From: Patescibacteria group bacterium
GTDB lineage: Bacteria; Patescibacteriota; Patescibacteriia; Buchananbacterales; SURF-54
Direction of reading: 5' to 3'
Length of the DNA stretch: 64,000 nt
Assembly (NCBI GenBank): GCA_018818885.1
Contig: JAHIRB010000007.1
Span: forward strand, 121,089 to 185,088
Positions 1-16,149 of this stretch are shown one piece after another (the first letter of the stretch is position 1; each line of letters opens with the position of its first letter). The translations under genes and the position numbers were made by a program. The notes beneath the pieces are model-generated. The model searched no databases. It worked only from the letters and a program-made list of their open reading frames with translations, and had not been told where the DNA came from.

Positions 1-1163
1 ATATCAAAAACCTTAGAACCAGGCAAAGGTACTAGAATAGCAAAATTGGCGAATGTACAATCCAACTCTCTAGCAAATTTAATTGTTTTCATAACTGTTT
101 CTTTAGTTTCCCCTAAATTCCCGATCATAAAACCGCATAAAGATGAAATTTTATATTTTTTTGTAAGTGTAATTACTTCTCTAGCTTTTTCTAATGTTGT
201 TTGTTTGCCTATCGAATCTAAAACTTTTTGATCACCAGATTCTATCCCAAACGCAATCGAATGACACCCAGCTTTTTTCATAATTTTTAATAATTCATCA
301 TCTAAACAATCTACCCTGCTATGACAAACCCAAGAAAGATTAAGCTTCTTTTCTATTAATAAATTGCATACATTGATGACGTGCTTTCGATTGATTGTAA
401 AAGCATCATCAATAAAAGAAATTTCTTTAATATCGTATTTGTCCATTATTAATTCAATTTCTGCCACTATATTTTCGGCACTCCTGTATCTCATGGTTCT
501 ACCAAATACTTTTTTACAACAAAAATTACAGTTAAATGGGCAACCCCTGCTTGTAATGACAGCTCCGGCTTTTCCTTGCACTCTTTTTCGTGTAGCAGAT
601 AAAGTGTATTCACCCATTTCCAATAATTCTCTCGCTGGGAAAGGAAGAATGTCTAAATTTTCGATTAGCTCTCTTTGTCCTGTAAAAACTATTTGATCGT
701 TTTCTTTATAATACAAGCCTTTAATTTCTTTAAATGACTTTTTATTCTTAACGGCTTCGACTAATTCTAAAGCAGTTTGTTCACCTTCTCCTACAACTAC
801 TACGTCAACATTTTCATTTTTTACTGTCTCCTCTGGTAACGTTGTTACATGGTGTCCGCCTATTACTAGTAACATGTTTTTGTTAATTTTTTTTGTTATT
901 TTGGCAATCTGAAAACCCTGATAAATATCAACGGTAGTAGCACTAATTCCCACTATATCAGGATTATAATCTCTAATGTATTCTTCGATTTCCTGAAATT
1001 CTAAGTTCTCTAATAAATTATCCAAAACTTTAACTTGGTAACCTTTTTTCATCAACAAAGCTGCAATATAACTAATCCCTAAAGGGATAGTTAAACCTCC
1101 AGCTTTAGCAAAAAGACTAAAAGCTTTTGTGTTTTTTGGTCTTATTAATAAAATTTTCATAAT
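1..1163 (-). CDS. Cobalamin (B12)-binding radical SAM protein, partial (C-terminal part lies beyond window start)
   Basis: Manual minus-strand translation from ATG at 1163 gives MKILLIRPKNTKAFSLFAKAGGLTIPLGISYIAALL...SRGCPFNCNFCCKK... with no stop down to position 1. N-terminal B12-binding-like Rossmann segment plus CxxxCxxC radical SAM motif; paralog of 1164-2582. Absent from the ORF track because it runs off the edge. Confidence 0.75.
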   Translation of the reverse strand, partial: MMKILLIRPKNTKAFSLFAKAGGLTIPLGISYIAALLMKKGYQVKVLDNLLENLEFQEIEEYIRDYNPDIVGISATTVDIYQGFQIAKITKKINKNMLLVIGGHHVTTLPEETVKNENVDVVVVGEGEQTALELVEAVKNKKSFKEIKGLYYKENDQIVFTGQRELIENLDILPFPARELLEMGEYTLSATRKRVQGKAGAVITSRGCPFNCNFCCKKVFGRTMRYRSAENIVAEIELIMDKYDIKEISFIDDAFTINRKHVINVCNLLIEKKLNLSWVCHSRVDCLDDELLKIMKKAGCHSIAFGIESGDQKVLDSIGKQTTLEKAREVITLTKKYKISSLCGFMIGNLGETKETVMKTIKFARELDCTFANFAILVPLPGSKVFD

Positions 1164-2582
1164 TTATCCAGCGAATTTTTTAGATAACATATTCAATGCA
1201 ATAAAAGTATATTTTTGTAATGTATAGAAATTTCGTACTTTACCAAGCATCCTAAAGATTGATTTTGGTCTAAAGTAGAATTTTCGATAGCCATATTTTA
1301 CATATTTAATTACGTCTGCTGACGAAAGTTCTGTTGTAGAAAGAAGTGGAAATGATTCAAGCTTTTCTCCACTCACCCACTTTTTCCAATAGTCTTTATC
1401 AATATGTCCATGCTCTACAGCCCATTGGAACAAATCCGTGCCTTGGCCATGCAACTGTGTTGGGCTAAACATAACATAATCTGCATCAAGCTCTATCGAA
1501 AAATTAATAGATTCCTTAACAGTTTCTTTTGTCTCTTGAGGAGATCCGATCATAAAGTAAGCAAAAGTTTCAATTTTATATTGTTTGCAGAGTTTAAAAG
1601 CTCTTTTGATTTGCTCTTTGTTGATATTTTTTTTCAAAACTTTTAGAATTTCTTCGTTGCCAGCTTCTACACCAAATCTAATACGATAGCATCCTGCTTT
1701 TTTCATAATCTTAATTAATTCTTCATCAACTAAATCTACCCTAGTTCTACATTCCCAAATGATATTCCAATCTTTTTTTGTAATCTCGTTACACAATTCA
1801 ATTGTTCGTTTTTTATCTACAGTAAAAGTATCATCATAAAAAATAATTTCTTGAATATTATACTTATTATATAAAGTATCTAGCTCATCAATTACACTTT
1901 TTACACTGCGCATTCTATAAGTACGACCAAGACGGCAATCACGTTCACAATAAATACAGTTGTATGGGCAACCGCGAGTAGTTATCATAGAAGCAAATGT
2001 TCGTTTTTTTGCTAGCACATCTTGATATTTACCTAACGACAACAAATGCCAGGCTACTTGCGGACTTTCATCTAGATTTTGAATGAATTGTCGAGGCTGG
2101 GTAACTTTTACTTCATCACCTTGACGATATACAATACCTTCAACATTTTGTGTGTCTGCATTATTTTCAATAGCTTTTGCTAAATCAACAATTGTTAGTT
2201 CACCTTCGTTAATTACTCCATAATCAAAACATTTAAACTTTAAAGTAATTTCTGGAAAAATTACTAAGTGTGGTCCACCTAATACGATTTTAATATTATC
2301 TAACTCTTCCTTAATTTTTTCTGCTGCTTCGCGTGCTTTATGAAAAGTAATTGTTGTGGTAGAAAGACCAATAAGTTCAGGATTAAATTCTTTGGCAGCT
2401 TTAATAACACCTAGAAGATCTAGGTTATCAGTTTCGGCATCAATAATTTTAACTTCATGTCCGGCTATTTCTAATGCAGAAGCTATGTAACCTAAGCCGA
2501 GAGGAGGAACTTTATTTTTTAAAACCCTCGCCAGAGACGAAACTTCTGTTCTGAATGGAGGGTATATTAGGAGTATTTTCAT
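1164..2582 (-). CDS. Cobalamin-binding radical SAM enzyme (class B radical SAM)
   Basis: 472 aa. N-terminal B12-binding-like domain (MKILLIYPPF...GLGYIASALE). Radical SAM cysteine motif TTRGCPYNCIYCE. Confidence 0.85.
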   Translation of the reverse strand: MKILLIYPPFRTEVSSLARVLKNKVPPLGLGYIASALEIAGHEVKIIDAETDNLDLLGVIKAAKEFNPELIGLSTTTITFHKAREAAEKIKEELDNIKIVLGGPHLVIFPEITLKFKCFDYGVINEGELTIVDLAKAIENNADTQNVEGIVYRQGDEVKVTQPRQFIQNLDESPQVAWHLLSLGKYQDVLAKKRTFASMITTRGCPYNCIYCERDCRLGRTYRMRSVKSVIDELDTLYNKYNIQEIIFYDDTFTVDKKRTIELCNEITKKDWNIIWECRTRVDLVDEELIKIMKKAGCYRIRFGVEAGNEEILKVLKKNINKEQIKRAFKLCKQYKIETFAYFMIGSPQETKETVKESINFSIELDADYVMFSPTQLHGQGTDLFQWAVEHGHIDKDYWKKWVSGEKLESFPLLSTTELSSADVIKYVKYGYRKFYFRPKSIFRMLGKVRNFYTLQKYTFIALNMLSKKFAG

Positions 2583-3551
2583 TTAGATGAAATCAATATT
2601 TGATTCTTTCTCAGGATGTTTGATATGATATAACAATTTATTTATTTCGTGATTTTTGCAACAGACCTGGCAGTCGGTATTGACTAACTTACATTTTTTT
2701 ATTTCTTTTCTTTTCTCTCCTGACCAGATATCTAAAAAACTATCCTTATATAAATTACCTAAAATGTATCCTTTTTTTCCTAACTTGTACATGCAGACGT
2801 TGACATCACCATTGTAATCAATAACTGGGCAGAAAAAATGTCCATAACAAACATCATAGCTACGTGGCTGAACACTGTCTGCAAATTTGTATTCAGAAAG
2901 AAAAATTTTAAACTTATCATCTTCTAATTCTTTTAATTTTTCTGGCACTTCGAATTTAGGTTGTTCTTTGTACAATTTTGCCAAGGCAGGTCTGACCTGA
3001 AAATAATCCACCCCTAACTCTTTCGCCTCTTTTGCGTATTTATAAGCGTCGTCGTAGTTTTCTTTTGTGATATTCAAACATATACCAATTGGTGTTTTAG
3101 AATCTACATATTCCTTAAGTAATTTTTTATCAATGCCATCCATGTATTTCTCAGTTAAAGATATTCTTATCCATTCAAAGTATTCAGGATCAACTCTGTT
3201 CTTTTCGTAATCAAGTGCATTTGTAAATAAACCTTGGGAATAACCTAGGCTATTAGCATGTTTAGCAAATTCATTAAAATTTGGATGCAGGGTTGGTTCT
3301 CCCCCGCCAGTCCAAGATATTGCCTTAACTCCAGCAGATGAAAGTTGGGAAAGAGTTTTTAGCATCACTTCTTTATCAATTTTTTCTCCGTTCTTATTAC
3401 CAGCGTAGAAACACCATGGACACTCAGCATTACAATAATTAGTTGGTGCTATTTCAATCAACACAGGCATAGCATCTCCGCTTTTTAGCCAGGCATTAAT
3501 TTTATCCCAATGCCAGAGAAGTTTCATTTGTGGGTTAAAAATAACTTTCAT
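2583..3551 (-). CDS. Radical SAM protein with C-terminal SPASM/twitch-like cysteine cluster
   Basis: CNAECPWC (CxxxCxxC) near N-terminus. C-terminal Cys-rich segment (CMYKL...CKLVNTDCQVCCKNHE). Confidence 0.75.
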   Translation of the reverse strand: MKVIFNPQMKLLWHWDKINAWLKSGDAMPVLIEIAPTNYCNAECPWCFYAGNKNGEKIDKEVMLKTLSQLSSAGVKAISWTGGGEPTLHPNFNEFAKHANSLGYSQGLFTNALDYEKNRVDPEYFEWIRISLTEKYMDGIDKKLLKEYVDSKTPIGICLNITKENYDDAYKYAKEAKELGVDYFQVRPALAKLYKEQPKFEVPEKLKELEDDKFKIFLSEYKFADSVQPRSYDVCYGHFFCPVIDYNGDVNVCMYKLGKKGYILGNLYKDSFLDIWSGEKRKEIKKCKLVNTDCQVCCKNHEINKLLYHIKHPEKESNIDFI

Positions 3552-4329
3552 GTATGTATTCTTTTAATGCTTTTTTATAAGGTCTTAATAATTTGCTTTT
3601 AGAAGAAGAATCGCGGCATCTTGGCGCGATATCTTTATATTTATTATCGATATAAAAATTTGGTTTTTTGCCTACTATCTTAGCAATTTCATTTGCCAGC
3701 TCCCATCTAGTGACTCTTCCTTGGTTAGTAGCCTCATATACACCATATTTCTTTTTTTTGTAGTATTCTATACAGAGTTTTACTAAGTCTTTTGAATAAG
3801 TTGGTGAACTCCACCGATTGTTTGTAACACCAATTTTCTTATTTTTATCTAATACAGACAGTATATATTCTACAAAATTTTCATGTTTTTGTCCAGTCTT
3901 ACCAAATAAAATATCTGTTTTAAAAACATAGTATTTTTTCATATCTAAGCTTTTAGGTATTTCTGAAGAAACTTTTTTTGTAAATGCATAGATGTTAGTG
4001 ATTTCTTGATCGACTGTTGAACCTATATGCATAAACTCAATCTCATGTTCAAGACAAGCCAATGCCATATAATAAGGTGCTAGTATGTTAAGATTGATTG
4101 CTTTTTGCTTATTTGTTTGACAAAAATCAATATTAGATATGCCAGTACAATTTATAACCAAATCGTACTTATTAGTAATAATTTTTGACACATCTGCTTT
4201 TTTCGTAACATCACATTTATTCTTTTTCGGTAACACCAAACTATAACCTAATTTTTTAAATTGACGGACGAATTCTGAACCTAACTTTCCCGTACTTCCA
4301 AATATTAAAATTTTTTTCTTTTTTGTCAT
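3535..4329 (-). CDS. NAD(P)-dependent sugar nucleotide reductase/epimerase, RmlD-like
   Basis: GSTGKLG Rossmann motif; SPTYSKDLV region resembles the dTDP-4-dehydrorhamnose reductase family. Overlaps the upstream gene by 17 bp, so it sits in the operon. Confidence 0.6.
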   Translation of the reverse strand: MTKKKKILIFGSTGKLGSEFVRQFKKLGYSLVLPKKNKCDVTKKADVSKIITNKYDLVINCTGISNIDFCQTNKQKAINLNILAPYYMALACLEHEIEFMHIGSTVDQEITNIYAFTKKVSSEIPKSLDMKKYYVFKTDILFGKTGQKHENFVEYILSVLDKNKKIGVTNNRWSSPTYSKDLVKLCIEYYKKKKYGVYEATNQGRVTRWELANEIAKIVGKKPNFYIDNKYKDIAPRCRDSSSKSKLLRPYKKALKEYIHESYF

Positions 4330-4332
4330 ATT

Positions 4333-5892
4333 TTAAATCTTTGATTCTTTAACGGTTAATACCCTTAATAAAAACTTTATGTTTTGTAATATTTTAATTG
4401 GAGAACCCAATAGATACTGCACCACTCCTAATATTGCTAAGTACCGTTCTTTAAATTTATTCATAAATGATCGCTTGCCTGGATCCCCAATTCTGACTAT
4501 GTGTTGACGAATGAGTACACGACTTAGATAGTGATCTTTATTTTTTAGTGATTCTTTGATTACATGTGGCAAAACTTTTTCGTGCGGAATGTTTTCATAT
4601 ATTGGAATATGAACCGGCGCTGAAAGTAAATAATTTCTGGAATTGTTGTAATTTTTTACCCAAGAAAAATTTAGTTGTCCTTGTTCTTTTGCTACTTGTT
4701 CTAAAGGGCTACCAGGATAAATGCGTAAAGGCGTAAGACCTCCAGCTTGGATTAAATATTTTCTAAGCTTATGATGCTGTTTGATATTTTCTGTCAGGTC
4801 ATCCAAGGTTTCCCCAGGACTTTCTATTAAAACTCCGCCTCGAACAATTATTTTATTATTATGAAGTATTTCTAAAGCCTTCCAAGTTTGTTCTACTGTG
4901 ATTTTTTTGTTCATTAGTTTTAAAGTATGATTGCTGAGATTTTCAATTCCTAATGTGATCATCCTGCCGCCACTTTCGTAAATCAACTTAGCTGTTTCAT
5001 CATCTAAAGCATCAATGCGAGCCAAGCAAGCATACCTGATCTTCTTATCTAAATTCTTTAAGCCATTGGCCAGCTCAAAAAACCATTTTTTATCTGCTAT
5101 CAAATGGTCGTCTTGAAAAACAAAATCATAAATGCCTCTATCGATATAATACTTGACGTGCCTGATGGCGTTTTCAGGACTTATATTTCTTAATGTTCTG
5201 TGCCACATGGCATCTGCGGAACAAAACGTACAATTATACGGACAACCCCTGGCAAAGATCAAATTTGCCATTGGCCTGTTTGAACGTGACTGCTTGACAA
5301 ACTCAATTGTTTCTAAATTATCAAACGCTTTATCTGTTGGTAAATACGACTTATATTGATTTATCTTTGTCATTTCGTAATCTGGCATTGGTAAGTCGTT
5401 TAGATCTTTTATTAGTTCAGCATTTTTATTTATTATGATTTCATTGTTTTGACGATACGTGATACCTTTAATATTTTTAAAAGATGAATTATTTTTTACT
5501 GCTTCTATTATTTCTGCTATTGTTATTTCTCCTTCGTGACGGACTACAATATCGACAAAATCCAGTTCTTTGATAATCTCTTTGTGCACCATGGTAGGAA
5601 AAGGTCCTCCCATAATGACTAAACTCTCTGGTAATGTTTCTTTGGCAATTTTGGCTGTATTAATACCTGCGAGTCGATCTTCTGCATTACTACTTATTCC
5701 GATAATATCTGGCTTAGTTTGCAGTAACCTAGTTTTAAAATCATCCTGAGATGGATCCTCCAAATATGCATCTTGATAAATAACTTCACAACCTTTTTGC
5801 TTGGCAATAGTTGCAATATACAAAGGCCCAATGGGTGGTAAAATATGTTTTTCTCCGTAATATCCAACCGGATTTGTAATAAAAAATTTCAT
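4333..5892 (-). CDS. Cobalamin-binding radical SAM enzyme
   Basis: 519 aa. B12-binding-like N-terminus. ARGCPYNCTFCSAD motif. Confidence 0.85.
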   Translation of the reverse strand: MKFFITNPVGYYGEKHILPPIGPLYIATIAKQKGCEVIYQDAYLEDPSQDDFKTRLLQTKPDIIGISSNAEDRLAGINTAKIAKETLPESLVIMGGPFPTMVHKEIIKELDFVDIVVRHEGEITIAEIIEAVKNNSSFKNIKGITYRQNNEIIINKNAELIKDLNDLPMPDYEMTKINQYKSYLPTDKAFDNLETIEFVKQSRSNRPMANLIFARGCPYNCTFCSADAMWHRTLRNISPENAIRHVKYYIDRGIYDFVFQDDHLIADKKWFFELANGLKNLDKKIRYACLARIDALDDETAKLIYESGGRMITLGIENLSNHTLKLMNKKITVEQTWKALEILHNNKIIVRGGVLIESPGETLDDLTENIKQHHKLRKYLIQAGGLTPLRIYPGSPLEQVAKEQGQLNFSWVKNYNNSRNYLLSAPVHIPIYENIPHEKVLPHVIKESLKNKDHYLSRVLIRQHIVRIGDPGKRSFMNKFKERYLAILGVVQYLLGSPIKILQNIKFLLRVLTVKESKI

Positions 5893-7106
5893 TACTTCTT
5901 GTTTATTAATTCTTGATAAGCATCTTTCATTCTTTGTGCTAATACTCTGTATTCATGATTTTTAATAATGTAATCACGAGAACTTTTGCCATATTCATTA
6001 ATTAGACTTTGGTTGTTTACAAATTTTTCTATAGCTTCTGCAAGTTCATTAACATTGCCATGTTCAACTGGAATACCAAGCTTTTTTTGTTCAAAATCGT
6101 GCGTATCATAATCTTTAGCTAATATTACGGGTTTTGACATTGACATTGCTTCTACATGAGCTTTATACAAGCCAAACTGTCCTAAAGCATCAAGCACAAA
6201 CACATCACAAATTGATAAGTAATCTAACCTTTCATCCCCTACTACTTTTCCAACAAATTCTATTTTTTTATTTTGACTAGCTAATTTTTTAAAATCTTCT
6301 ACTGTAGATTTAGCACCTTCGCCAGCAATAATTAGTTTGACGTTTTGATGTTTCTGGCATAGTTGATTGAATGCTTGAATTAAATAATGAGTTCCTTTTC
6401 TCTTGGAAACCATGCTTAAAAATAAAAAAGTTATTACATTTGGGTTTTTTCTAAATTTTGACTGGTATGTAGGATCAAATTTTTCTGAATCTACTGCCAT
6501 GGGAATTGATACAAACTTTGACTGATATCCTTTTTCTTTAAGATCTGTTTCAATTTTTGTTTCGCGCATTCCATATACATCGACACTACGTGGAAAATTT
6601 TCGTCTTTAATGAAAAGTTGGTAAAAATATTTAGAAAATTTATTAAATATTTTTTCAAAAAAACTGTATGTAGGTTTTATTGAAATTTCTTCCCATTTTT
6701 TTTGACGATCGTAATTTATGTCACCCAGAAAATTTTTATCTTCGTAATCGTACGGAAGGTCCGCAGTAGAAACAAATGGTTTAATTTTAAACTTAGAATA
6801 TGGATGAGGGCCATTTGTTGGTGCCAGATGAATAATATCAATTTTTTTAAAAAAAACTATTGGTAAAGAATAAAAAAATGTTTTAAGCATGTAGGGCTTG
6901 GTAAAATTTGGTTGTTTCTTGCAACCAGGTACAGTATAAATTTTAATATTAGGGTGTAACTTATTTTCTATAATTTCTGTAAAAGTAGAAACAACAAAAA
7001 TTTTCACACCTAATTTTGCAAGAGCATTTGAAAGACCCCAGGTTCCTTGTGATTCTCCCCCAACGTGGGTATCAGAGAAAATATGAGTTAGAAATAGTAT
7101 ATTCAC
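5892..7106 (-). CDS. Glycosyltransferase, GT-B fold (GT4-like)
   Basis: 404 aa. C-terminal GT1/GT4-type region (KVVGDERL...DVFVLDALGQFGL...EAMSMSKPVI). Confidence 0.55.
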   Translation of the reverse strand: MNILFLTHIFSDTHVGGESQGTWGLSNALAKLGVKIFVVSTFTEIIENKLHPNIKIYTVPGCKKQPNFTKPYMLKTFFYSLPIVFFKKIDIIHLAPTNGPHPYSKFKIKPFVSTADLPYDYEDKNFLGDINYDRQKKWEEISIKPTYSFFEKIFNKFSKYFYQLFIKDENFPRSVDVYGMRETKIETDLKEKGYQSKFVSIPMAVDSEKFDPTYQSKFRKNPNVITFLFLSMVSKRKGTHYLIQAFNQLCQKHQNVKLIIAGEGAKSTVEDFKKLASQNKKIEFVGKVVGDERLDYLSICDVFVLDALGQFGLYKAHVEAMSMSKPVILAKDYDTHDFEQKKLGIPVEHGNVNELAEAIEKFVNNQSLINEYGKSSRDYIIKNHEYRVLAQRMKDAYQELINKK

Positions 7107-7138
7107 TTGACAGTTTTAATTAATTATGTTATTATAAT
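7107..7138 (+). promoter_or_regulatory. Candidate sigma70-type promoter for the plus-strand gene
   Basis: TTGACA at 7107-7112, 17-nt spacer, TATTAT at 7130-7135. A GGAGG box at 7185-7189 precedes the ORF. Confidence 0.35.
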
Positions 7139-7182
7139 TAGTCTATTTAGACAATAAATTGATATTTGACAATTAAACGAAA

Positions 7183-7971
7183 TTGGAGGTGATTGAATTG
7201 GCCGAAAAAAAGATTGTAAAAAATTCTGTGGTGATAGTAACAATCACAATGGTACGAGATCAGGAAGAATACAACAGAATGGTGTCAACTCATCGCTCAC
7301 TCTCACAGCTCGCATTAACCAATGACTGGAAAGTGGTAACCGTAAACCGACCAACCAATAGTACTTTCCAAAAAAGATTGGAATATGCATTTGAAGATTT
7401 CAATATTGAAGTCATCAAGTGCACAGAAGGTTCTGTCGGACTTCAGCTGGCCACTGCTTATGTTGAGGGCTCAAAAAGAGCTCAAGATATGGTTTTGTAT
7501 ACTGAAGGTGACAAAACCGATTTTGTTCCATTTATTGGAAAAATACTTGCTCAAGCAGCGGACCACGAACGGATATTCAACACGTCACCTGCAATGTTGG
7601 TGCCAGGCAGAATTAATATGGGTATATATTCTTGTACCCGGAAATCGCCAGAACGGATAACTAACCTCATCCAATCATTTTTGATTGGGACAAAGGGTGA
7701 TTATCAATATGGGCCGAAACTATTTGATCCAAAGATCATCTTGCCACACGAAAAAATAATTATGGATTATGTCAAGAAGCGACCTGGCTGGCAAGTAGCA
7801 ACATGGCTTCCAATTTTTTTAGCCATACGCTATCCTGGTCAAGTAATTCCCTGCCCAATCAACGTACAACCAATGAAAGGCGAAGACAAGAATTTCTTTA
7901 AAGATCTTCGATTTCGTTTCCTTACTCAATTGCGACAAGCAATTGTCGCAATGTGGGATGCGGCGCAATAA
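7183..7971 (+). CDS. Hypothetical protein (GC-richer than its neighbours); true start may be a downstream TTG/GTG
   Basis: 262-aa ORF on the opposite strand to the surrounding operon. Has its own promoter-like boxes and a terminator hairpin. No family recognised. Confidence 0.5.
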   Translation: MEVIELAEKKIVKNSVVIVTITMVRDQEEYNRMVSTHRSLSQLALTNDWKVVTVNRPTNSTFQKRLEYAFEDFNIEVIKCTEGSVGLQLATAYVEGSKRAQDMVLYTEGDKTDFVPFIGKILAQAADHERIFNTSPAMLVPGRINMGIYSCTRKSPERITNLIQSFLIGTKGDYQYGPKLFDPKIILPHEKIIMDYVKKRPGWQVATWLPIFLAIRYPGQVIPCPINVQPMKGEDKNFFKDLRFRFLTQLRQAIVAMWDAAQ

Positions 7972-7976
7972 ACCAC

Positions 7977-8010
7977 GGCTTCAAGTCAGCACGACTTGGA
8001 GCCGTTTTTT
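7977..8010 (+). terminator. Rho-independent terminator
   Basis: GGCTTCAAGTC-agcac-GACTTGGAGCC stem followed by GTTTTTT. Confidence 0.6.
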
Positions 8011-8012
8011 CT

Positions 8013-9341
8013 TTAATGTTCAAGTTTATTTAATTTTTTTCTCAATGCAACAAAATTAACTATCAATGAAAATAACGACCAATATACTATCAAAACTACT
8101 GTGCTTTTGAGTGCTGTTGTATATTGCAGGCTTATGACAAATAGTAAAAGTCCTGTTATTAAATTAGTTATATTGATTGTTATCACTGTTTTCATTTTAT
8201 TCATTGTTCTGTAAAGCGAACTATACCCAACTGCAAAACCAGCAAAAATTGTACCCAAACTCAAGACATAAACTAATTTAATGCTTAGTATAAACTGCTG
8301 ACCGTAAAAAACTTTTATTAGTATTGGTGCAATCATCAAAAATAATATTGTTAAAACTATAAAAGTAAGCCCAGTATACAATGCTGATTTGTAATAATTA
8401 CTCTTTAGATCATTAGCGCTTGCTGCTTTTGCTTTTGGTAATTGTATCTGAAGTAAGCGCGCAATTGGGCCTAAAAATACTTTAGGTAGTGCAAGATATG
8501 CGATGGCAATTTTCAAATTTGCAACTTGTTCTGGACTCGATAACGCTCCTAGAAATATTACAGGCAATAAACTAAAGGAATTTGCAATATTTTTATCCAC
8601 TGCAATCGAAAAACCAAACTTAAAATATTTTGAAATTTTTACATTAGGAAAATTTCTTATGATCTCTGGCAATGAGGATACTAAACTATTACGAGTTGCA
8701 AAATGATAATATATCCATAAAGAACAAAACATAAAGCCAAAAGCTGTTAAGAAATGTCCCCAAACAATACCCCACAACCCAAACCCTAGCAATACAAATG
8801 TGATAGGTGCACCATGCAAGAAAAACTTATTAACATTTTCTATTATCGTTAAATATTTAATCTTTCTAAGTACCTGGAGCATTATCATTAAAAGAGAAAG
8901 AAAGGTTCGCAGTATTGTTGCAAATATTACTAAACGAGCAAAACTTCCAATTTCTGGACGATGATATATAAGGCCGGAAAGCTGTGGTGAAAAAATTATT
9001 GCTAATATTCCTATTACTATAGCAATATACAAATTTGATTTTAAGAAATAAGTTAGAATATTTTTCATTTCATTTCGATCTCCACGTGCATAACTTTCTG
9101 AAAGTAGTGTTAAAGTAGCATATCCAACTCCCCAATCCATAAAAATACCCACTAAACCCGCAAAAGCAAAAATCAGAGCATAATTACCATAAAGCTCCGA
9201 ACCTAGAACTCTGGCATATATTACTGACGCAACTAAAGCCAGCCCAGTTCCTACAAAAGATCCTATTTGTAAAGTGAATACATCTTTTACAAATTTTAAT
9301 TTCCAGAGGTTATTAATTTTTTCTTTGATTATTTTTACCAT
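8013..9341 (-). CDS. Polysaccharide/oligosaccharide flippase, Wzx-like (MOP superfamily)
   Basis: 442 aa with about 12 predicted TM helices. Sits in a glycosyltransferase context. Confidence 0.65.
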   Translation of the reverse strand: MVKIIKEKINNLWKLKFVKDVFTLQIGSFVGTGLALVASVIYARVLGSELYGNYALIFAFAGLVGIFMDWGVGYATLTLLSESYARGDRNEMKNILTYFLKSNLYIAIVIGILAIIFSPQLSGLIYHRPEIGSFARLVIFATILRTFLSLLMIMLQVLRKIKYLTIIENVNKFFLHGAPITFVLLGFGLWGIVWGHFLTAFGFMFCSLWIYYHFATRNSLVSSLPEIIRNFPNVKISKYFKFGFSIAVDKNIANSFSLLPVIFLGALSSPEQVANLKIAIAYLALPKVFLGPIARLLQIQLPKAKAASANDLKSNYYKSALYTGLTFIVLTILFLMIAPILIKVFYGQQFILSIKLVYVLSLGTIFAGFAVGYSSLYRTMNKMKTVITINITNLITGLLLFVISLQYTTALKSTVVLIVYWSLFSLIVNFVALRKKLNKLEH

Positions 9342-9342
9342 A

Positions 9343-10842
9343 TTATCCTTTGAGCCTTTTTATATAGGCAATTAATCTTGTGGGTTTTTGTATAAATAAT
9401 TTTAACATTTTTAAATATTTTTTGGGACTAAATATTCTTTTTGATAGATCGTATCTAGCAACCCGTGATTCCAATTGCTTCGAAAACCCTTTTAGATCTT
9501 GGGGAGAAAATTCTTTGGTCTTGATCAACCCCTTTCCCCTGGCTTGCGTTCCCAAAGCTAAATTCTTTGGGGTAAGCGGTTCCAATAAATAATCATTTTG
9601 TATTACGATATCATGCAACCGTGTCCCGTACAATGGAGTAGCTACCATTAAACTAGGTGTCACATTATATTTCTTATAAAGATTGAAGGCAAAATCTATT
9701 GTATTTTGTATTTTTTCTTTAGTTTCACCAGGAAAACCTATTACGTAAAATGATCTTAGCTTAATACCAATTTTTTTGCACCACTCTGCTACTTGTTTTA
9801 TGGTAGTAAGTTTTAAATTTTTATTGATAATTTTATCTAATGTTTCTTGGTCGCCAGATTCAGTCCCAATGACCAGTTCTTCGCATCCTGTGCCTTTCAT
9901 CTTCTTAAGTAATGTCTCGTTTAAAGTATCTGCTCGCACACCGTTTGGCGTATCCCAAGTAATTTTAATATGATTATTTTGAATGCCGTCAAGAATATTT
10001 TCACAACGTTGGGGATTGAAAGTAAAATTGTCATCTTCGAACGAAATATGCTTTACTTCATATTCTTTTACAACATGATCAATGTGTGAAACCGTGTATT
10101 CAGCAGAATGTTTTCGCCACATCTTTCCCATATGCAGATGTATCGAACAAAATACACAATTAAAGGGGCAACCTCTGCTGGTTATCATTGATATTGACCT
10201 TTCGAACTTTCCAGGCCTGGTAGCAAGACCTTCCTGTAAAAATGAAAAGTACCTTTGCATATCTATCAATTCATAAGCGGGAACTGGCAGATTATCAAGA
10301 TCTTCTATTGTTTTACAATCATTCTGCTTAATTTCTCCATCTCGACGGTAGATCAACCCAGCTATATTCTCAATTGGCTGGTTGTGATTTACTGAATTGA
10401 CAAAATCAAGCATTGCATACTCCCCTTCGCCTACTACTGCATAATCCAAATTTTTGTTTTCTTCTAGATATTTTCTGCCTAAAACTGCAAAATGCGGACC
10501 TCCGGCCATTATCGTTGCTTTTGGTTTTGCCTGCCTGACTAAATTGATTGCTTTAGTTGTATTTTCTATTTGCGCGGTGAATTGCGAAGTTACGCCAACA
10601 ATATCAGGATCATATTTTTTTACCTTGTCTATAAAATAATCTTGCTCTACTCCGTGAAAAGTGTGATCATCTTTTTCCAATATTTTTGTTTTTTCATCAA
10701 TTAAAGTATCGAATATTTCAACGTTAATTCCGTTCTTTTTTAAATTTGCTGCTATGTACATAATGCCTAAGGGCAGACCAAGTCTTACGCCTTTTGAGCC
10801 ACTATAATATGTTCGTGCGGGATTAATCAGTAAAACTTTCAT
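9343..10842 (-). CDS. Cobalamin-binding radical SAM enzyme
   Basis: 499 aa. TSRGCPFNCVFCS motif; B12-binding-like N-terminus. Confidence 0.85.
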   Translation of the reverse strand: MKVLLINPARTYYSGSKGVRLGLPLGIMYIAANLKKNGINVEIFDTLIDEKTKILEKDDHTFHGVEQDYFIDKVKKYDPDIVGVTSQFTAQIENTTKAINLVRQAKPKATIMAGGPHFAVLGRKYLEENKNLDYAVVGEGEYAMLDFVNSVNHNQPIENIAGLIYRRDGEIKQNDCKTIEDLDNLPVPAYELIDMQRYFSFLQEGLATRPGKFERSISMITSRGCPFNCVFCSIHLHMGKMWRKHSAEYTVSHIDHVVKEYEVKHISFEDDNFTFNPQRCENILDGIQNNHIKITWDTPNGVRADTLNETLLKKMKGTGCEELVIGTESGDQETLDKIINKNLKLTTIKQVAEWCKKIGIKLRSFYVIGFPGETKEKIQNTIDFAFNLYKKYNVTPSLMVATPLYGTRLHDIVIQNDYLLEPLTPKNLALGTQARGKGLIKTKEFSPQDLKGFSKQLESRVARYDLSKRIFSPKKYLKMLKLFIQKPTRLIAYIKRLKG

Positions 10843-11920
10843 AGAGCTTTAAATATTTTTTTGATACTTCCTGCCAATCATTACTTTTAGCTAGCTCATA
10901 ACCATTTTGCCCTAGTTTTATAGCAAGTGCTTTATCAGACAAAATTTCATCAATAGCATCTGCTGTAGCATTAACGTCGTCTGGGGGCACTACAAGGCCA
11001 TTTTGGCTATCTTTTACTACATCTATTACACCACCAGCAGCAGAGGCTACGATAGGTATCTTGCACGCACCTGCTTCTAAATAAACAAGTCCAAACCCTT
11101 CAAACTTATTTTCTTTGATAACCTTAGGGGTTAACACAAAGATATCGGCTTCACTGTATAACTTTAATAATTCTTGATCAGATACTTTCTCAATAAATCT
11201 GACATTATCTTTAAGATCTGACTTTTCAACTATATTTCTTAAATGATAATAATAATTTTTATCTGATTGATTGCCAACTATTGTATATGACAAATCAGGA
11301 TACTTCGACTTTAACTTCGCGATTGCTTTGATGGAAATATCAAAACCTTTTCTATTTTTTAATGCCCCTACGCTTAAGATATTTTTTTTATGATCAGAAG
11401 TATTTTCTTCTTTTATATTTTTGTTGAATTTTTCAAAATCTACTCCATTATTTATTACTACTGTATTATCTAATTTAATTCTTTTTAAAATTTCGCTTTG
11501 TGTAAAACTACTTACACAAATAATCTTTTTTGCTTTTTTGTAAAATCCTCTAACTAAATATTTATAAAATTTGTGATCTAAAGATGAAACAGCATAGGTG
11601 CCGTGAGCTGTTAAAAAATATGGTTTTGTTTTTATGGTTGAAAAAATTAAAAACCTTGGTAGGTCTGTGCAAAAATGCACTACATCACAATTCTTTGCGT
11701 GACTTCTTACAATTTTACGAAACTCCAAAAATGACCTTAAGTCTTTTTTTAGATTTAAATTAGGTGCATTGATAAAGGTGACGTTACTTAATGCTTCATT
11801 ATGATCTGGCGAAATAATTGTAACATTATGATTTTGGGAATACTCATTAATCAATCCTAAACAATACCTTCCCTGTCCATCTTTTTCTGAAAGTGTTTTT
11901 GTAATTAATAATATCTTCAT
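10823..11920 (-). CDS. Glycosyltransferase family 4 (GT-B)
   Basis: EGFGLVYLEAGACKIPIVASAAGG motif typical of GT4. Confidence 0.7.
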   Translation of the reverse strand: MKILLITKTLSEKDGQGRYCLGLINEYSQNHNVTIISPDHNEALSNVTFINAPNLNLKKDLRSFLEFRKIVRSHAKNCDVVHFCTDLPRFLIFSTIKTKPYFLTAHGTYAVSSLDHKFYKYLVRGFYKKAKKIICVSSFTQSEILKRIKLDNTVVINNGVDFEKFNKNIKEENTSDHKKNILSVGALKNRKGFDISIKAIAKLKSKYPDLSYTIVGNQSDKNYYYHLRNIVEKSDLKDNVRFIEKVSDQELLKLYSEADIFVLTPKVIKENKFEGFGLVYLEAGACKIPIVASAAGGVIDVVKDSQNGLVVPPDDVNATADAIDEILSDKALAIKLGQNGYELAKSNDWQEVSKKYLKLYESFTD

Positions 11921-13269
11921 TTTTTCTTAACTAAATGAATCAAAAATTTTGGATTTAAAAAATATGCTTTTCCATACTTTTTTTTATACTTATAATGCCT
12001 AAGTACCATAAGCGCTCTTTTGGGACTATATCTAACTCCAATCCTGCCTGCATATTTTTCGATATTCTCCCAGCTAAATTTCTTATCTGGATTTAGTTCT
12101 TTTAGTTTTTGATAAAGCTTTGTACCAGGGTACGGAATAGCTGGATTGAAATTTTTGACCTTTAGATCGTGGTCTAATATAAAATTAACTGTTTCTTGAA
12201 TCGTTTCTTTGTCTTCTCCAGGACAATTGATTAAAACGTAATAACCCACATCAATCTTGTTTTCTCTTAATATATATATTGCTTGTTTAAGATCTTTTTG
12301 TGTAGTTTTTTTATTGATGTTTTCTAAAATTTGATCTGATGCTGATTCTAGACCAATATTAATTTTAAAGCATCCAGCTTTTTTTATTTTTTCAATTATA
12401 TCTTGATTTCTGACGATATCTGTGGCTCTGGCATTACAACCCCAACTAATCTTGATTTCGTTATTAATTAATAAATCGCTAATTTTTTCCACCCGAGGTA
12501 TGTCAACTAAATATTCCCAATCTTGAAAATAAATTGATTTAATACCAAAATTTATTATCAGATACTCAATTTCAATGAGTACTCGTTCTGGACTTTGGCT
12601 GATATAATTACCTTCTGACATTGCTTTAAGGCAAAACGTACATGAATAAGGGCAACCTCGTGAAGTCATCATAATAGAAAAAGGATCTTTAAAGCCTGAC
12701 GCATGATATTTTTCCATTGGCAATAATTCGTATGCTGGTAAAGGCAATGCATCTAAATCGTTTATTCTTCCTGCTTGAGAGTTGTGAATTATTTTTTTAT
12801 CTTGTTTAAAGGATATACCTTTGACATCAACTAACTGACCTTTTGCAGATAAATTGTCGACAGTTTCCTCCACAATTTTTTCTGGCTCACCCTTAACCAC
12901 AATATCAGCTTTAGACTTATTGAAAATCCAGTCAGGATCCACTGTGCCATGGCTCCCTGTGATTATCTTGTGCTTAGCTTTTGTAGCATCTAAAATTTTA
13001 AAAATATTATTAATATGAGAATTAGGACACTCCCACCTATCTATTGGCGTAGTTGTTAAAATTAAAACTTCTGACTCAAATTCATTAATAGAATCAATAG
13101 TTTTTTGTACAGTATAATTTAAAACATTAGCATCTAAAAATCTGATCTCGTGACCCTTATCCTGCAGAATTGCTGCAATCGTAGCTAAAGAAAGAGGCTG
13201 ACGTGCGCGTACGTTCATGACTGACCTTCTTTCTATGTTAAAATTTGGATTTAAGATAAATATCTTCAT
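11917..13269 (-). CDS. Cobalamin-binding radical SAM enzyme
   Basis: 450 aa. TSRGCPYSCTFCLK motif. Confidence 0.85.
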   Translation of the reverse strand: MKIFILNPNFNIERRSVMNVRARQPLSLATIAAILQDKGHEIRFLDANVLNYTVQKTIDSINEFESEVLILTTTPIDRWECPNSHINNIFKILDATKAKHKIITGSHGTVDPDWIFNKSKADIVVKGEPEKIVEETVDNLSAKGQLVDVKGISFKQDKKIIHNSQAGRINDLDALPLPAYELLPMEKYHASGFKDPFSIMMTSRGCPYSCTFCLKAMSEGNYISQSPERVLIEIEYLIINFGIKSIYFQDWEYLVDIPRVEKISDLLINNEIKISWGCNARATDIVRNQDIIEKIKKAGCFKINIGLESASDQILENINKKTTQKDLKQAIYILRENKIDVGYYVLINCPGEDKETIQETVNFILDHDLKVKNFNPAIPYPGTKLYQKLKELNPDKKFSWENIEKYAGRIGVRYSPKRALMVLRHYKYKKKYGKAYFLNPKFLIHLVKKK

Positions 13270-13850
13270 TTTTCTAAATATATTACAAAACCTGATGTTT
13301 GGTTTTTTGATTTAAAAATACTATCGATTATTCGTGCTAGGGGAGAAAATACCTTCCGATAAATTTTAATCGGTATTAAATTTACCAGTGTTTCAAATAA
13401 ACCTCTGATATTTTTGATTTCAATGGCAGAAAACTTCTTAAACATATGTTTCGCGCCCTCTTTGGTAAATCGATAATAATCGCCATAATATCCTTTTTCT
13501 GCATGATAAGGATATAAAAAAGGCAAAGAAACTAGACATTTTCCATTTGGCTTTAGAACACGATAAATTTCTGAAACTGCCTTGAATGGATCGTCAATAT
13601 GTTCCAAAACTGCACGACAGATTACTGCGTCAACTGAACTATCATCCAACGGAATATTTTTTATATCACCAACAATATCTGGCTTGTATTCGGAAACAGT
13701 ATCTAATGTTTTATAATCTTTTCCTTGAAATATTTCCTCATACTCCTTCATCCCCTTTTGAAAACGATTGCCTCCTCCTACATCCAATATTGAGTTTGAA
13801 TCTTTGGCAATTAATTTTATTTTTTCATCCCAAAATTTTATCCACATCAT
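13266..13850 (-). CDS. Class I SAM-dependent methyltransferase
   Basis: ILDVGGGNR motif I; acidic post-I residue; 194 aa. Confidence 0.7.
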   Translation of the reverse strand: MMWIKFWDEKIKLIAKDSNSILDVGGGNRFQKGMKEYEEIFQGKDYKTLDTVSEYKPDIVGDIKNIPLDDSSVDAVICRAVLEHIDDPFKAVSEIYRVLKPNGKCLVSLPFLYPYHAEKGYYGDYYRFTKEGAKHMFKKFSAIEIKNIRGLFETLVNLIPIKIYRKVFSPLARIIDSIFKSKNQTSGFVIYLEK

Positions 13851-13942: not shown

Positions 13943-15100
13943 TTATTTTATAAAAATTAAAATATTTTTTGCACGTTTTTGCCAAGTGTATTCTTTAACA
14001 TCTAGATATGCATGGCTGACTATACTATTAACCAAATTCTTATCATTTAATAATTTTTTTATACCATCAGAGAGCGCTTTTGGATCATCTGACTTAACCA
14101 AAACTGAATTATCAGTATCTAAGATTTCTCTTATTGATTGCAAGTCTGAAGCTACAACTGGTTTTTTGGCTGCCATATATTCAAATAGTTTCATCGGCGA
14201 GGTATACTTAACCGATATTTGTTTTTCTTTAGAGTTAGGTAATACAACAACGTCAGCTGCCCTTAGAAATATCGGAATCATTGTTGGGCTTTGATGCCTA
14301 ATACTCTTAACGTTTGATAATCCATTTTTATCTATATAATTATTTAAACGTGCTCTATCATGTTCCATACCACCAACAAAAACAATTAATTCTTTATTGG
14401 ATAAATATTTTGCACTTTCAGCTAATGTAAAAACTCCTTTCCATCTAAATAGATGTCCAGTATATAATATAATATTTTTTTCTTGCGAAAAATAATCATA
14501 ATATTTTTCTAAATATTGACGGCATTCTTTCTTTGACTTATCAATATCAAACTGATAAATGCTAACACCGTCAGGGGCTACCATTATCTTACTATCATCT
14601 ATTTCTAATTGATCCACTAGAAGTTTCTTTAATGACTTAGTAATTACTACGATCCTTTTGCACCTCTTAAACAGCATTTTGTATAAAGTAAACTTACTTT
14701 GAGGAAAAGTGTGTAGTTCGAACACAATATTTTTTTTAAATAATGAAAGAAAAAAACTTGAAAACTCATCTCGTGAGTAGATAATATCGGGCTTTTTATT
14801 AGCGAGATATCTCAATGCCGACAATGCAAAGCTTGTGTTTTGAATAGGAACACTCAAACCTTTAAACGATCTACCCATAGCGACAATATCTAAAAGCCAA
14901 AGTTTTTTTATTTCGAACTCATTTTTTATTCCGTAATATTGAAAAGGCTTAATATGTTCAAGTTGATTATCTTTTCTGTTTGCTACTACTAACTCAACAT
15001 CAACACCTTGATTTTTAAAAGCTTCACACATCTTCATAATCTGCAACCCATGTGCTTTTTCTGTCGGGATTCTCGCGTTGGCTAAATATATAATTTTCAT
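13943..15100 (-). CDS. Glycosyltransferase family 4
   Basis: 385-aa GT-B. C-terminal nucleotide-sugar-binding region (LPNSKEKQISVKYTSPMKLFEYMAAKKPVVAS). Confidence 0.65.
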   Translation of the reverse strand: MKIIYLANARIPTEKAHGLQIMKMCEAFKNQGVDVELVVANRKDNQLEHIKPFQYYGIKNEFEIKKLWLLDIVAMGRSFKGLSVPIQNTSFALSALRYLANKKPDIIYSRDEFSSFFLSLFKKNIVFELHTFPQSKFTLYKMLFKRCKRIVVITKSLKKLLVDQLEIDDSKIMVAPDGVSIYQFDIDKSKKECRQYLEKYYDYFSQEKNIILYTGHLFRWKGVFTLAESAKYLSNKELIVFVGGMEHDRARLNNYIDKNGLSNVKSIRHQSPTMIPIFLRAADVVVLPNSKEKQISVKYTSPMKLFEYMAAKKPVVASDLQSIREILDTDNSVLVKSDDPKALSDGIKKLLNDKNLVNSIVSHAYLDVKEYTWQKRAKNILIFIK

Positions 15101-15105
15101 AAATA

Positions 15106-16149
15106 CTATATGGTTTGTTTTATTATGTTGACTAGTTCCTGACCTAATATTTTTGGCTGAAATCTTTGCTGATATAATTCATGACCACTAGCAGCGATTT
15201 TATTTCTAAGGTCAGGGTTATCTTTTAATTTCATGACTTTATCCGCTAAATCTTGAGGGTCTGCAGTTTTACAGAATAAGACGTTCTCTGCATTTTCTAA
15301 AATTTCCTTAGTAGCAGTTGATTCTGAAGTTATCAAAGGTTTTTTGCATGCCAAGCTTTCAAAAATTTTATTCGGTATAACTAAATCTTTTTTAGGTGTG
15401 TTTCCAAACACTCCTAAGCAAATATCAGCATTATTGATTAATGTATTCAATTCTTCTTGAGAAACCTCGTTATGAAAAACTACATTTTGTAATCCTTGGC
15501 TTTCTACTTTTTGTTTAATCTTTTCATATCTGCTAGTAAAGCGTGTGACAATTTGCCATTTGATATATTCATTTTTCAAAATATTTGCTGCCTCAATAAC
15601 ATACTCTATTCCGTGAAAAGGTACTAAATAACCATGAAAATGAACAATAAACTTGCTATCCTTTTTTTCTTTTGGATAAAAATACTTATTATCTGCGCCT
15701 GCATAAATCTTTTTGAATTTATCTTTTGGTAAATTGAAAGTTTTTACAAAATAATCAATGTGCGCTTGTGTATCTAACAAAACTACATCAGCTAGCTGGC
15801 ACGAAATTTTATCTCTAAAATAATCAAACTTTGCTTTTAAACTGCTCTGGCTATATCGTTTGCGATCAAAAACATTTGTGTTGTACAAAGAAACAAAAGC
15901 ATCAAATATTATTTTCTTTTTGCAAATTAACTTTGCCCAAGGCATTATTCCTTGACCCAAAAATCCTACAACAACTACATCATGTTCTTTTATCTTTTTA
16001 TATTTAGAATATAACTCCCAATATTTTTTAAAACCTTTAGCTCTGGAATTGCATTCAATTACTTCCACGCCATTAGCTTCTAAGCCCTGTATCAATATAT
16101 TATTTCTTGGATACCTCTTACTGTATATTCCAAAATAACAAACCTTCAT
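15106..16149 (-). CDS. Glycosyltransferase (GT-B, GT4-like)
   Basis: 347-aa GT-B-like (ESLACKKPLITSE...). Confidence 0.55.
   Translation of the reverse strand: MKVCYFGIYSKRYPRNNILIQGLEANGVEVIECNSRAKGFKKYWELYSKYKKIKEHDVVVVGFLGQGIMPWAKLICKKKIIFDAFVSLYNTNVFDRKRYSQSSLKAKFDYFRDKISCQLADVVLLDTQAHIDYFVKTFNLPKDKFKKIYAGADNKYFYPKEKKDSKFIVHFHGYLVPFHGIEYVIEAANILKNEYIKWQIVTRFTSRYEKIKQKVESQGLQNVVFHNEVSQEELNTLINNADICLGVFGNTPKKDLVIPNKIFESLACKKPLITSESTATKEILENAENVLFCKTADPQDLADKVMKLKDNPDLRNKIAASGHELYQQRFQPKILGQELVNIIKQTI

Follow-up and report, generated by a model that had tools for sequence, protein, structure and literature searches.

What use would a bacterial surface-glycan operon have for a whole series of radical S-adenosylmethionine (SAM) enzymes? 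The question is raised by a stretch of 64,000 nucleotides (nt), hereafter the window, from the contig JAHIRB010000007.1 of a Patescibacteria group bacterium of the Buchananbacterales (assembly GCA_018818885.1, positions 121,089 to 185,088 of the forward strand). Its first 13,269 nt encode five class-B radical SAM proteins, in which a B12-binding domain precedes the radical SAM core; we name their genes rsA to rsE. A radical SAM enzyme of the SPASM type lies among them, as do genes for glycosyltransferases and a flippase. The first-pass annotation of this DNA counted five class-B copies, which holds for the window; a sixth paralogue, rsF, is found on the contig just past window position 1. The set at 1-13269 is the downstream half of a glycan island of at least 45 kilobases (kb). 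The whole island encodes six class-B enzymes besides the single radical SAM enzyme of the SPASM type. The answer we favor is that these enzymes tailor sugars while they are linked to polyprenyl phosphate, at the cytoplasmic face of the membrane and before export; as a whole model, this seems to us to have an even chance of being right.

Are the proteins what they appear to be? Pfam places PF02310 (B12-binding) and then PF04055 (Radical_SAM), both over their gathering scores, in all five, with 39.7-91.5 bits for the former (cut-off 32.1) and 70.7-92.2 for the latter. All the genes are on the minus strand: rsA (<1-1160; 91.5 and 90.2 bits), rsB (1164-2582, 472 amino acids (aa); 85.6 and 88.1), rsC (4333-5892, 519 aa; 59.0 and 70.7), rsD (9343-10842, 499 aa; 75.2 and 74.5) and rsE (11917-13269, 450 aa; 39.7, a weaker B12 signature, and 92.2). 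The window edge cuts the 3' end of rsA, which starts at 1160 and not at the 1163 first given; the complete protein, of 473 aa, is encoded at 11423-12844 of a source-contig stretch, L001, that matches window 1-12582 letter for letter as its reverse complement and continues past window position 1. The cysteine motif CX3CX2C occurs once in each of the five, within RGCP[FY]xCx[FY]C. A shared cluster had thus been rightly seen, but its proposed form, RGCP(Y/F)xCxFC, was too narrow: rsA reads RGCPFNCNFC, and rsB reads RGCPYNCIYC, ending in YC. Pairwise identity among the five is 25-38%, with E-values from 1e-37 to 1e-95.

The first-pass annotation had also named two faults that might undo it, placement of the proteins in non-B12 families and decay into pseudogenes. 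PF02310 is present in all five, and unbroken open reading frames (ORFs), full-length alignments to orthologues and kept gene order exclude a pseudogene or chance reading. The products of rsB and rsD align to orthologues over 99-100% of their length, and those of rsC and rsE align almost end to end with 521- and 457-aa proteins of a parcubacterial locus, L091, to which we return. Domains, motifs and the predicted fold of rsB all bear out the five class-B genes; judged by these features, rsA-rsE are genuine class-B enzymes and the SPASM protein is a genuine SPASM radical SAM enzyme, all of subfamilies not yet characterised.

Retention of the cobalamin site is the next point. The contacts are a downstream GxS/TxX motif, a GG on beta-4 and a GE at alpha-5 (Bridwell-Rabb/Drennan review, PMC9204698). 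All three are found in rsA (GISAT/GG/GEGE), rsB (GLSTT/GG/NEGE), rsC (GISSN/GG/HEGE) and rsD (GVTSQ/GG/GEGE); in rsB, E126-G127-E128 and G102-G103 are unchanged across 22 relatives. An AlphaFold (AF2) model of rsB, with a predicted local distance difference test (pLDDT) score of 90.5, was matched by Foldseek over its whole length, both domains included, to TsrM, AprD4, MgmA, OxsB, CysS and TokK. These are methylases (TsrM, MgmA, CysS, TokK), a ring-contracting enzyme (OxsB) and one that works without cobalamin (AprD4): fold does not separate the chemistries. By sequence (phmmer), the nearest solved structure to rsB is AprD4 (E 8e-27), followed by TsrM, TokK, MgmA, OxsB and CysS.

The position of AprD4 at the head of that list suggests an alternative, in which some or all of the enzymes are cobalamin-independent dehydratases or dehydrogenases of the AprD4 kind, acting with the RmlD-like and short-chain reductases of the cluster to give deoxy or epimerised sugars. 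AprD4 is a sugar dehydratase of the same fold as rsB (template modelling (TM) score 0.76 on the target, among the best matches) that does without cobalamin, and therefore fold alone is insufficient to establish cobalamin binding. Of the two NAD(P) reductases that the cluster offers, one has its gene tightly coupled to that of a radical SAM enzyme; the cobalamin motifs of rsE (ILTTT/TG/GEPE) and rsF are incomplete; and no cobalamin acquisition gene or riboswitch was seen in the 64 kb. However, the AprD4 family model gives the paralogues 40-124 bits where its cut-off is 500, the phmmer alignment of rsB with AprD4 is limited to the radical SAM core (196-396) whereas those with TokK and OxsB reach into the B12 domain, and rsA-rsD keep the three motifs, with invariant residues in the rsB relatives as described. 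An AprD4-like role is very unlikely on this balance.

Which reaction, then, do the class-B enzymes catalyse? The equivalog cut-offs of NCBIfam are 577.6 bits for HpnJ (TIGR03471), 481.35 for BchE (TIGR02026), 575 for Sden_1168 (NF038361), 500 for AprD4 (NF033070) and 400 for TIGR04295. Neither the SPASM enzyme nor any class-B paralogue reaches an equivalog cut-off; family models thus do not settle the reaction type, and membership of each of these five families was rejected on its cut-off. The BchE model scores the five window paralogues at 140-250 bits and is the top family for rsA, rsB, rsC and rsE (165-250); the photosynthesis or bacteriochlorophyll context of BchE is missing here. HpnJ is second-best for rsA (202 bits), rsB (234, next to 250 for BchE) and rsE (164), with 120 for rsC and 176 for rsD. 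The top model of rsD is the Sden_1168 P-methyltransferase, at 227 bits (115-149 for the other paralogues). TIGR04295, 'B12_rSAM_oligo', is the third-best family of rsE at 142 bits and gives 65-118 for the others. The sixth copy stands apart: by its score of 362 bits over the full length, next family 112, rsF, a protein of 472 aa, is clearly HpnJ-like, yet it too falls under the HpnJ cut-off, and there are no hopanoid genes among the window genes scanned.

The classification of each paralogue by hidden Markov models (HMMs), which had been suggested as a check, thus returns class-B architecture throughout and no equivalog. A 'heavily C-methylated' glycan, as first proposed, is not borne out by these scores: no methylase cut-off is reached, the best families of four paralogues are the non-methylases BchE and HpnJ, and rsF is HpnJ-like. 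C-methylation becomes one option among several.

A few of the scores could be taken to indicate that sugars are not the target at all. Many lipid-modifying radical SAM enzymes are class-B, and one can suppose that these enzymes methylate or cyclise chains, alkyl or isoprenoid, in membrane lipids or in the polyprenyl carrier, as do HpnP/HpnR, the methylases of glycerol dialkyl glycerol tetraethers (GDGTs) and ring synthases. The ladderane-lipid model TIGR04072 gives rsB 189 bits, the class-B tails are amphipathic, and a neighboring methyltransferase on L001 weakly matches cyclopropane fatty-acyl synthase. But the ladderane score and that of HpnR (the sole hopanoid methylase model among the matches) are far under cut-off; the genes sit among glycosyltransferases and flippases, with no lipid-synthesis genes among the window genes scanned; and the conserved partner of the family is a glycosyltransferase of family 2 (GT2), which transfers sugar. 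We regard lipid targets as highly improbable.

The SPASM enzyme (2583-3551, minus strand, 322 aa) abuts rsB. It scores 37.8 bits on PF04055 and 36.4 on PF13186 (cut-off 21.5), and eight of its cysteines (C40, C44 and C47, with C235, C253, C294, C297 and C298) are invariant in 26 homologues, the last five being putative ligands of one or more auxiliary Fe-S clusters. Its structural model (pLDDT 91.2) matches SuiB, SkfB, PqqE, anSME, DesII, BtrN and BlsE. Overlapping it by 17 nt is the gene for a RmlD-like NAD(P)-dependent reductase (3535-4329, minus strand, 264 aa; PF04321, 116 bits), which reaches 120 bits on the rmlD model TIGR01214 (cut-off 224). The 17-nt overlap is identical in the window, in L090 and in L091; the two genes are a conserved, translationally coupled pair. 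A second pairing joins rsE to a class-I SAM methyltransferase (13266-13850, minus strand, 194 aa; PF08241 and related families), which overlaps it by 4 nt: in L091 a methyltransferase orthologue of 70% identity lies directly upstream of the rsE orthologue.

The SPASM fold brings in the possibility that the radical SAM enzymes mature a peptide or protein, in the manner of peptides made on ribosomes and modified post-translationally (RiPPs) or of a surface protein, and that the glycosyltransferases are a separate matter. The maturases SuiB and SkfB are among its best folds, the ApyD and RiPP C-methyltransferase models match moderately (up to 168 bits), and a secreted protein of 1234 aa is encoded nearby, at 29462-33166. 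The same fold search also yields the sugar enzymes DesII, BtrN and BlsE, however; the ApyD and RiPP scores are far under cut-off; gene coupling is with glycosyltransferase family 4 (GT4), GT2, Wzx and reductase genes; and no precursor-peptide-like, RiPP recognition, leader-protease or transporter genes are present among the genes scanned. Peptide maturation is scarcely credible here.

The evidence that points to a particular form of sugar comes from relatives. They are abundant: more than 3,300 for rsB at E <= 1e-20 and more than 4,100 for rsD at E <= 1e-30, with metagenomic relatives in the thousands. A scan of one genome per species gave 80 loci of the rsA/rsB family (31-41% identity), in bacteria of the candidate phyla radiation (CPR), Omnitrophota, DPANN archaea, Methanosarcinales bins, Brocadia, Scalindua, Dehalococcoidia, FCPU426, Muiribacteria and the isolate Desulfatibacillum alkenivorans. 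GT2 or GT4 genes are present in 62 of the 80. Where the sequence was long enough to judge (70 loci), a GT2 gene lies immediately upstream on the same strand in 30 (43%), and 45 have one no farther than 4 kb away. Each of the 25 upstream GT2s scanned matches ArnC, AglJ and PpgS, which are polyprenyl-phosphate sugar synthases, and most partner GT2s finish with two hydrophobic helices. An insensitive search found a flippase-like LPG_synthase_TM protein within 5 kb in 18 of 66 loci. Of 71 large multi-pass membrane ORFs in these loci, 15 belong to PMT_2, a family of GT-C glycosyltransferases, which is more than any other Pfam family can claim; PMT_2 was counted by Pfam scan, since our own PMT_2 and flippase-like profiles, built from one or two sequences, were insensitive and found PMT2 only in L001.

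The same elements lie next to rsF. On the contig, past window position 1, the order is rsF, two methyltransferases, a GT2, a flippase-like LPG_synthase_TM gene and a PMT_2-type membrane protein; the part from rsF to LPG_synthase_TM occupies L001 12885-17883. The window has its own GT2 and PMT_2 genes as well, overlapping by 1 nt, and this pair also counts for a lipid-linked substrate. It is from this conserved neighborhood of GT2, flippase-like and GT-C genes that we propose polyprenyl-phosphate sugars as substrates.

Finally, the C-termini of all six class-B proteins are cationic and amphipathic, with a net charge of +6 to +14 over the last 45 residues, and each tail contains one of the three top hydrophobic-moment windows of its protein. 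By their sequence, such tails would fit peripheral membrane binding, which is soft evidence.

An alternative, close to an experiment suggested in the first-pass annotation, is a nucleotide-sugar substrate: the class-B enzymes would act on soluble nucleotide sugars, for example by C-methylating nucleoside diphosphate (NDP)-hexoses, and GT4 enzymes would incorporate the products. Many GT4 genes, whose enzymes use nucleotide-sugar donors, do alternate with the radical SAM genes. A UDP-glucose-family dehydrogenase and the RmlD-like reductase, both typical nucleotide-sugar enzymes, are in the cluster, and the radical SAM proteins have no predicted transmembrane segment. But the gene kept immediately beside the rsA/rsB family encodes a polyprenyl-phosphate sugar synthase, with a flippase-like protein next, and not a nucleotidyltransferase or dehydratase; RmlA/B/C-type genes do not occur among the window genes scanned; and all six class-B proteins bear the cationic amphipathic tails. 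None of the sugar-acting class-B enzymes known to us (GenK, MoeK5, HpnJ) uses NDP-sugars, which counts against such substrates too. The neighborhood fits a polyprenyl-phosphate-linked sugar better, and we hold soluble nucleotide sugars to be unlikely substrates.

Nor is the array a peculiarity of one genome. The synteny search suggested at the outset shows related arrays in many loci, and L091 is collinear with the window through GT4 (59% identity), methyltransferase (70%), rsE (47%), GT4 (36%), Wzx (69%), GT4 (68%), rsC (62%), RmlD-like reductase (50%) and SPASM enzyme (74%). After this run come a polyprenyl-phosphate-type GT2 and an rsB-like gene and, farther along, genes for a polysaccharide-deacetylase-family protein and an ArnA-like formyltransferase. 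The closest orthologues found elsewhere share 68% identity with rsB, 62% with rsD, 62% with rsC and 56% with rsE, all above the identity between paralogues in the cluster. Orthologues of rsD (51-61%) occur in glycan clusters L087, L088 and L090, and those of rsE in L027 (56%), L088 (55%) and L091 (47%). In L002, a protein of 749 aa is an rsF orthologue (55% identity) fused to a SAM methyltransferase, a parallel to the adjoining rsF and methyltransferase genes here. As the orthologues elsewhere are much closer than the paralogues alongside, the array is an old one that has been maintained, not a recent amplification.

Multiplicity recurs as well. Where a locus spans at least 15 kb (45 cases), two or more class-B copies are present in 20, three or more in eight and five in one (L024, from Portnoybacteria). 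Within 17.5 kb, L088 encodes five class-B enzymes, and it includes a run from a PgfS/ArnC-like GT2 through a class-B enzyme to a YfhO GT-C. Class-B arrays of three to five copies in glycan clusters are thus a recurrent feature across uncultured lineages. Two loci deserve separate mention. At 10520-13168, L088 also encodes a methyltransferase domain joined in one protein with the N-terminal domain of a transketolase; the C-terminal subunit of a transketolase comes next, and this hints at two-carbon sugar branching, dependent on thiamine pyrophosphate (TPP), in a similar pathway. In L058, three consecutive class-B genes of the broad family are carried by an isolate, D. alkenivorans DSM 16219 (NZ_FQZU01000012.1 82101-103399), with no GT2 or GT4 nearby in the census; the strain could provide a tractable relative, or else represent a different context.

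How might the enzymes work together? We propose two modes. The first, reminiscent of the Arn pathway, concerns the rsA/rsB family and rsF: a GT2 would make a polyprenyl-phosphate monosaccharide; the radical enzyme would then alter an unactivated carbon of that lipid-linked sugar; the flippase-like protein would carry the modified product outward; and a PMT_2-type GT-C would transfer it to a surface acceptor. In the second, rsC, rsD and rsE, each translationally coupled to a GT4 gene, would modify the residue that the partner GT4 adds to a lipid-linked oligosaccharide, and this modification would precede flipping by Wzx. The SPASM enzyme might contribute a radical oxidation or dehydration and the RmlD-like enzyme a reduction with NAD(P)H, for a net epimerisation or deoxygenation. 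By analogy, the class-B chemistry itself could be C-methylation (GenK, MoeK5), ring contraction (HpnJ) or dehydration (AprD4). In this model the domains, motifs, fold, gene order and its conservation, and families of the neighbors are observed; from them we infer the lipid-linked substrate, the division of labor and the chemistry.

Several points weigh against tailoring on polyprenyl phosphate by cobalamin enzymes. Some have been met already: AprD4, cobalamin-independent, is the closest solved sequence; the cobalamin motifs of rsE, and those of rsF, are incomplete; no class-B or SPASM protein reaches a curated cut-off; and the tails are soft evidence. Others concern supply. Rfam, at the gathering threshold, finds no cobalamin riboswitch or other RNA in the whole 64 kb (there are no tRNA genes either), no cobalamin transporter, uptake or salvage genes appear among the genes scanned at 27-64 kb, and CPR bacteria are, to our knowledge, generally thought incapable of making cobalamin. 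In the model's favor, as regards low-potential electrons, two subunits of a pyruvate/2-oxoacid:ferredoxin oxidoreductase are encoded at 45251-47885 (minus strand), and this enzyme could be a source for the radical SAM enzymes. Still others concern the neighborhood. Within the window, rsB has no adjoining GtrB-type GT2, the nearest being 20 kb upstream, and the flippase-like gene is outside; direct GT2 adjacency is found in only 43% of related loci; and the census relied on HMMs from window proteins and on stop-to-stop ORFs, so that its counts are approximate. No Wzy polymerase (Wzy_C) and no initiating phosphoglycosyl transferase (Bac_transf, WecA-type) were found among the window genes scanned; the related loci L002, L004 and L090 carry Bac_transf and/or Wzy_C. 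Finally, no biochemical or glycan-composition data were found for the organism or its relatives.

A broader proposal is that anaerobic prokaryotes, most of them ultra-small (CPR, DPANN, Omnitrophota, anammox bacteria and others), share a widespread branch of envelope biogenesis that has gone undescribed, and that the window belongs to it. Cobalamin-dependent radical SAM enzymes would remodel polyprenyl-phosphate-linked sugars, which would then be flipped and transferred by GT-C enzymes; the remodelling would be C-methylation and/or ring contraction to a carbasugar or cyclitol, and the window would be the most elaborate example known. Taken jointly, these statements are possible but doubtful. 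If they hold, the surface glycan would contain several C-branched, carbocyclic or deoxygenated residues, and the cell surface of a genome-reduced symbiont would rely on scavenged cobalamin.

Why does this matter? Most class-B radical SAM enzymes have no known function, and a large subfamily of them here gains a concrete and testable substrate hypothesis. Should it prove true, radical C-H functionalisation would join the means by which bacteria and archaea tailor surface glycans. New sugars (C-methyl, carbocyclic or deoxy) would be expected at the cell surface of CPR and DPANN organisms, about whose envelopes next to nothing is known, and the episymbiont cell surface would be tied to external cobalamin and low-potential reductants. 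Such enzymes would also serve glycoengineering.

The operon itself is laid out largely as the first-pass annotation described it. The genes of the 1-13269 set are all on one strand, the minus strand according to the ORF list, and Pfam identifies the SPASM enzyme, RmlD-like reductase, GT4s, Wzx and SAM methyltransferase that were said to be interleaved with the class-B genes. Among the GT4 genes, that at 5892-7106 (minus strand; PF00534 and PF13692) overlaps rsC by 1 nt, and that at 10823-11920 (minus strand; PF00534, 145 bits, and PF13439) shares 20 nt with rsD and 4 nt with rsE. Between them, at 8013-9341 (minus strand), lies the Wzx-type flippase of the MOP family, for lipid-linked oligosaccharide (PF01943 and PF13440; about nine hydrophobic segments). 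The description of the ORFs as overlapping or abutting is right for most junctions, where neighbors either overlap by 1-20 nt or lie 0-3 nt apart, and fails at a single gap of 906 nt (7107-8012). A plus-strand ORF (7183-7971, 262 aa) interrupts the operon there. It is listed as a gene in the source annotation and is preceded by the best promoter-like site of the first 19.5 kb (7107-7135; sigma-70-like, 11/12, with an extended -10 TG); the best terminator-like hairpin of the same 19.5 kb (7975-8005, 13-bp stem) flanks it. This ORF has no Pfam match and no meaningful sequence match in the PDB, and L091, otherwise collinear, has no counterpart.

Upstream of the set, glycan genes reach about 28.6 kb of the window, and the glycan context first proposed is well founded over that distance, with ten GT4 genes in the window, a polyprenyl-phosphate-type GT2, a PMT_2 GT-C and a sugar dehydrogenase. 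All but the last of the following are on the minus strand. Two GT4 genes (13943-15100 and 15106-16149; PF00534 and PF13692) are followed by a short-chain dehydrogenase (16236-16961; PF00106, 126 bits), another GT4 (16945-18207; PF00534, 160 bits) and, by Pfam, two more (19150-21320); a DUF3800 gene without an obvious role in glycan synthesis (18365-19147) stands amid this run. Then come the GT-C (21322-23016; PMT_2/ArnT-like, PF13231 with 93.5 bits, eight hydrophobic segments), whose donor class is polyprenyl-phosphate sugars, and the overlapping GT2 (23016-23699; PF00535, 132.6 bits), which resembles polyprenyl-phosphate sugar synthases. In NCBIfam this GT2 scores 133 bits on AglJ, 73 on PpgS, 70 on a Dol-P hexose transferase and 65 on ArnC, all under cut-off. 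Pfam then identifies two GT4s (23696-24826 and 24823-25941), an enzyme of the UDP-glucose/GDP-mannose dehydrogenase family (25948-27210) and a divergent GT4 on the plus strand (27461-28588), which forms the upstream edge of the island. A small GtrA-type flippase is absent in the window, the flippase-like LPG_synthase_TM gene lying beyond it, and a further GT4 is found on the contig downstream of rsA.

The 1234-aa protein (29462-33166, minus strand) adjoins the island. It has an N-terminal hydrophobic segment and no Pfam domain, and it is a candidate surface or S-layer protein and a possible target of glycosylation. A tetratricopeptide repeat (TPR) gene (28644-29345) and genes for a DUF5667 protein and an extracytoplasmic function (ECF) sigma factor (33631-35371) are near it. 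Farther on, a reverse transcriptase gene (RVT_1, 343 aa; 36285-37316, plus strand) lies in a patch richer in G+C (0.405 vs about 0.32), with no intron RNA according to Rfam at the gathering threshold, and a second PMT_2-type GT-C gene (48161-49570, minus strand) is distant from the main island.

The claim that this is not a described pathway layout is consistent with the literature: full-text searching, from which subscription journals were mostly excluded, found no paper that describes class-B arrays within clusters for surface glycans, or a radical SAM step as part of GtrB/GT-C systems. Single parts of the layout do have likenesses among known systems. TIGR04295 is a curated family of B12-domain radical SAM proteins whose short name hints at a setting of oligosaccharides; with 142 bits against 400, rsE falls outside it, and no publication on the family was found in the literature searched. 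GenK, GenD1, Fms7 and MoeK5 share the two-domain architecture, and each is tied to the pathway of a sugar-containing antibiotic; that of MoeK5 makes moenomycin, a lipid-linked oligosaccharide. In actinomycetes, enzymes of the GenK type are encoded one or two at a time within secondary-metabolite clusters, whereas here there are six copies in a CPR surface-glycan operon. The comparison is one of architecture and context, as no NCBIfam model for these enzymes was among the matches. The AprD4/AprD3 system is similar in that no solved sequence is closer to rsB than AprD4, whose fold is also among its best matches, and that NAD(P) reductases are present in the cluster. It differs in that the reductase here is coupled to the SPASM gene and not to a class-B gene, in the AprD4 model scores of at most 124 bits, and in the cobalamin motifs kept by rsA-rsD.

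In the HpnI/HpnK/HpnJ (HpnL) pathway to bacteriohopanetetrol cyclitol ether the likeness is closer. There a GT2 puts a hexosamine on a lipid and the B12-domain radical SAM enzyme HpnJ rearranges the sugar; HpnI/HpnK/HpnJ and calditol synthase act on lipid-linked hexoses and provide a precedent for ring contraction. The position of rsF beside a GT2 gene and a flippase-like LPG_synthase_TM gene recalls the HpnJ/HpnI/HpnL trio, HpnL being, we presume, of the LPG_synthase_TM family. However, the scores are under the HpnJ cut-off, hopanoid genes are lacking and the neighboring GT2 has 40 bits on HpnI; the many GT4s, Wzx and GT-C enzymes point to a polymer or glycoconjugate, and not to one head group on a hopanoid.

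The Arn pathway and the three-component systems follow the same logic as our first mode: a polyprenyl-phosphate sugar synthase, optional tailoring of the lipid-linked sugar, a flippase and a GT-C. Tailoring at that stage is the work of ArnD, and of DprE1/E2 in mycobacteria. The partner GT2s match ArnC, AglJ, PpgS and PgfS, PMT_2 and YfhO GT-C genes are nearby, and L091 adds the ArnA-like formyltransferase and a protein of the polysaccharide deacetylase family, to which ArnD belongs. The tailoring enzyme here, in contrast, is a class-B radical SAM protein, and the flippase-like partner is LPG_synthase_TM rather than GtrA or ArnE/F. Three-component systems of GtrB, flippase and GT-C have been described (PMC11127046). 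In its combination of features, which we did not find described, the pathway would by analogy most resemble an Hpn module joined to the Arn and three-component systems.

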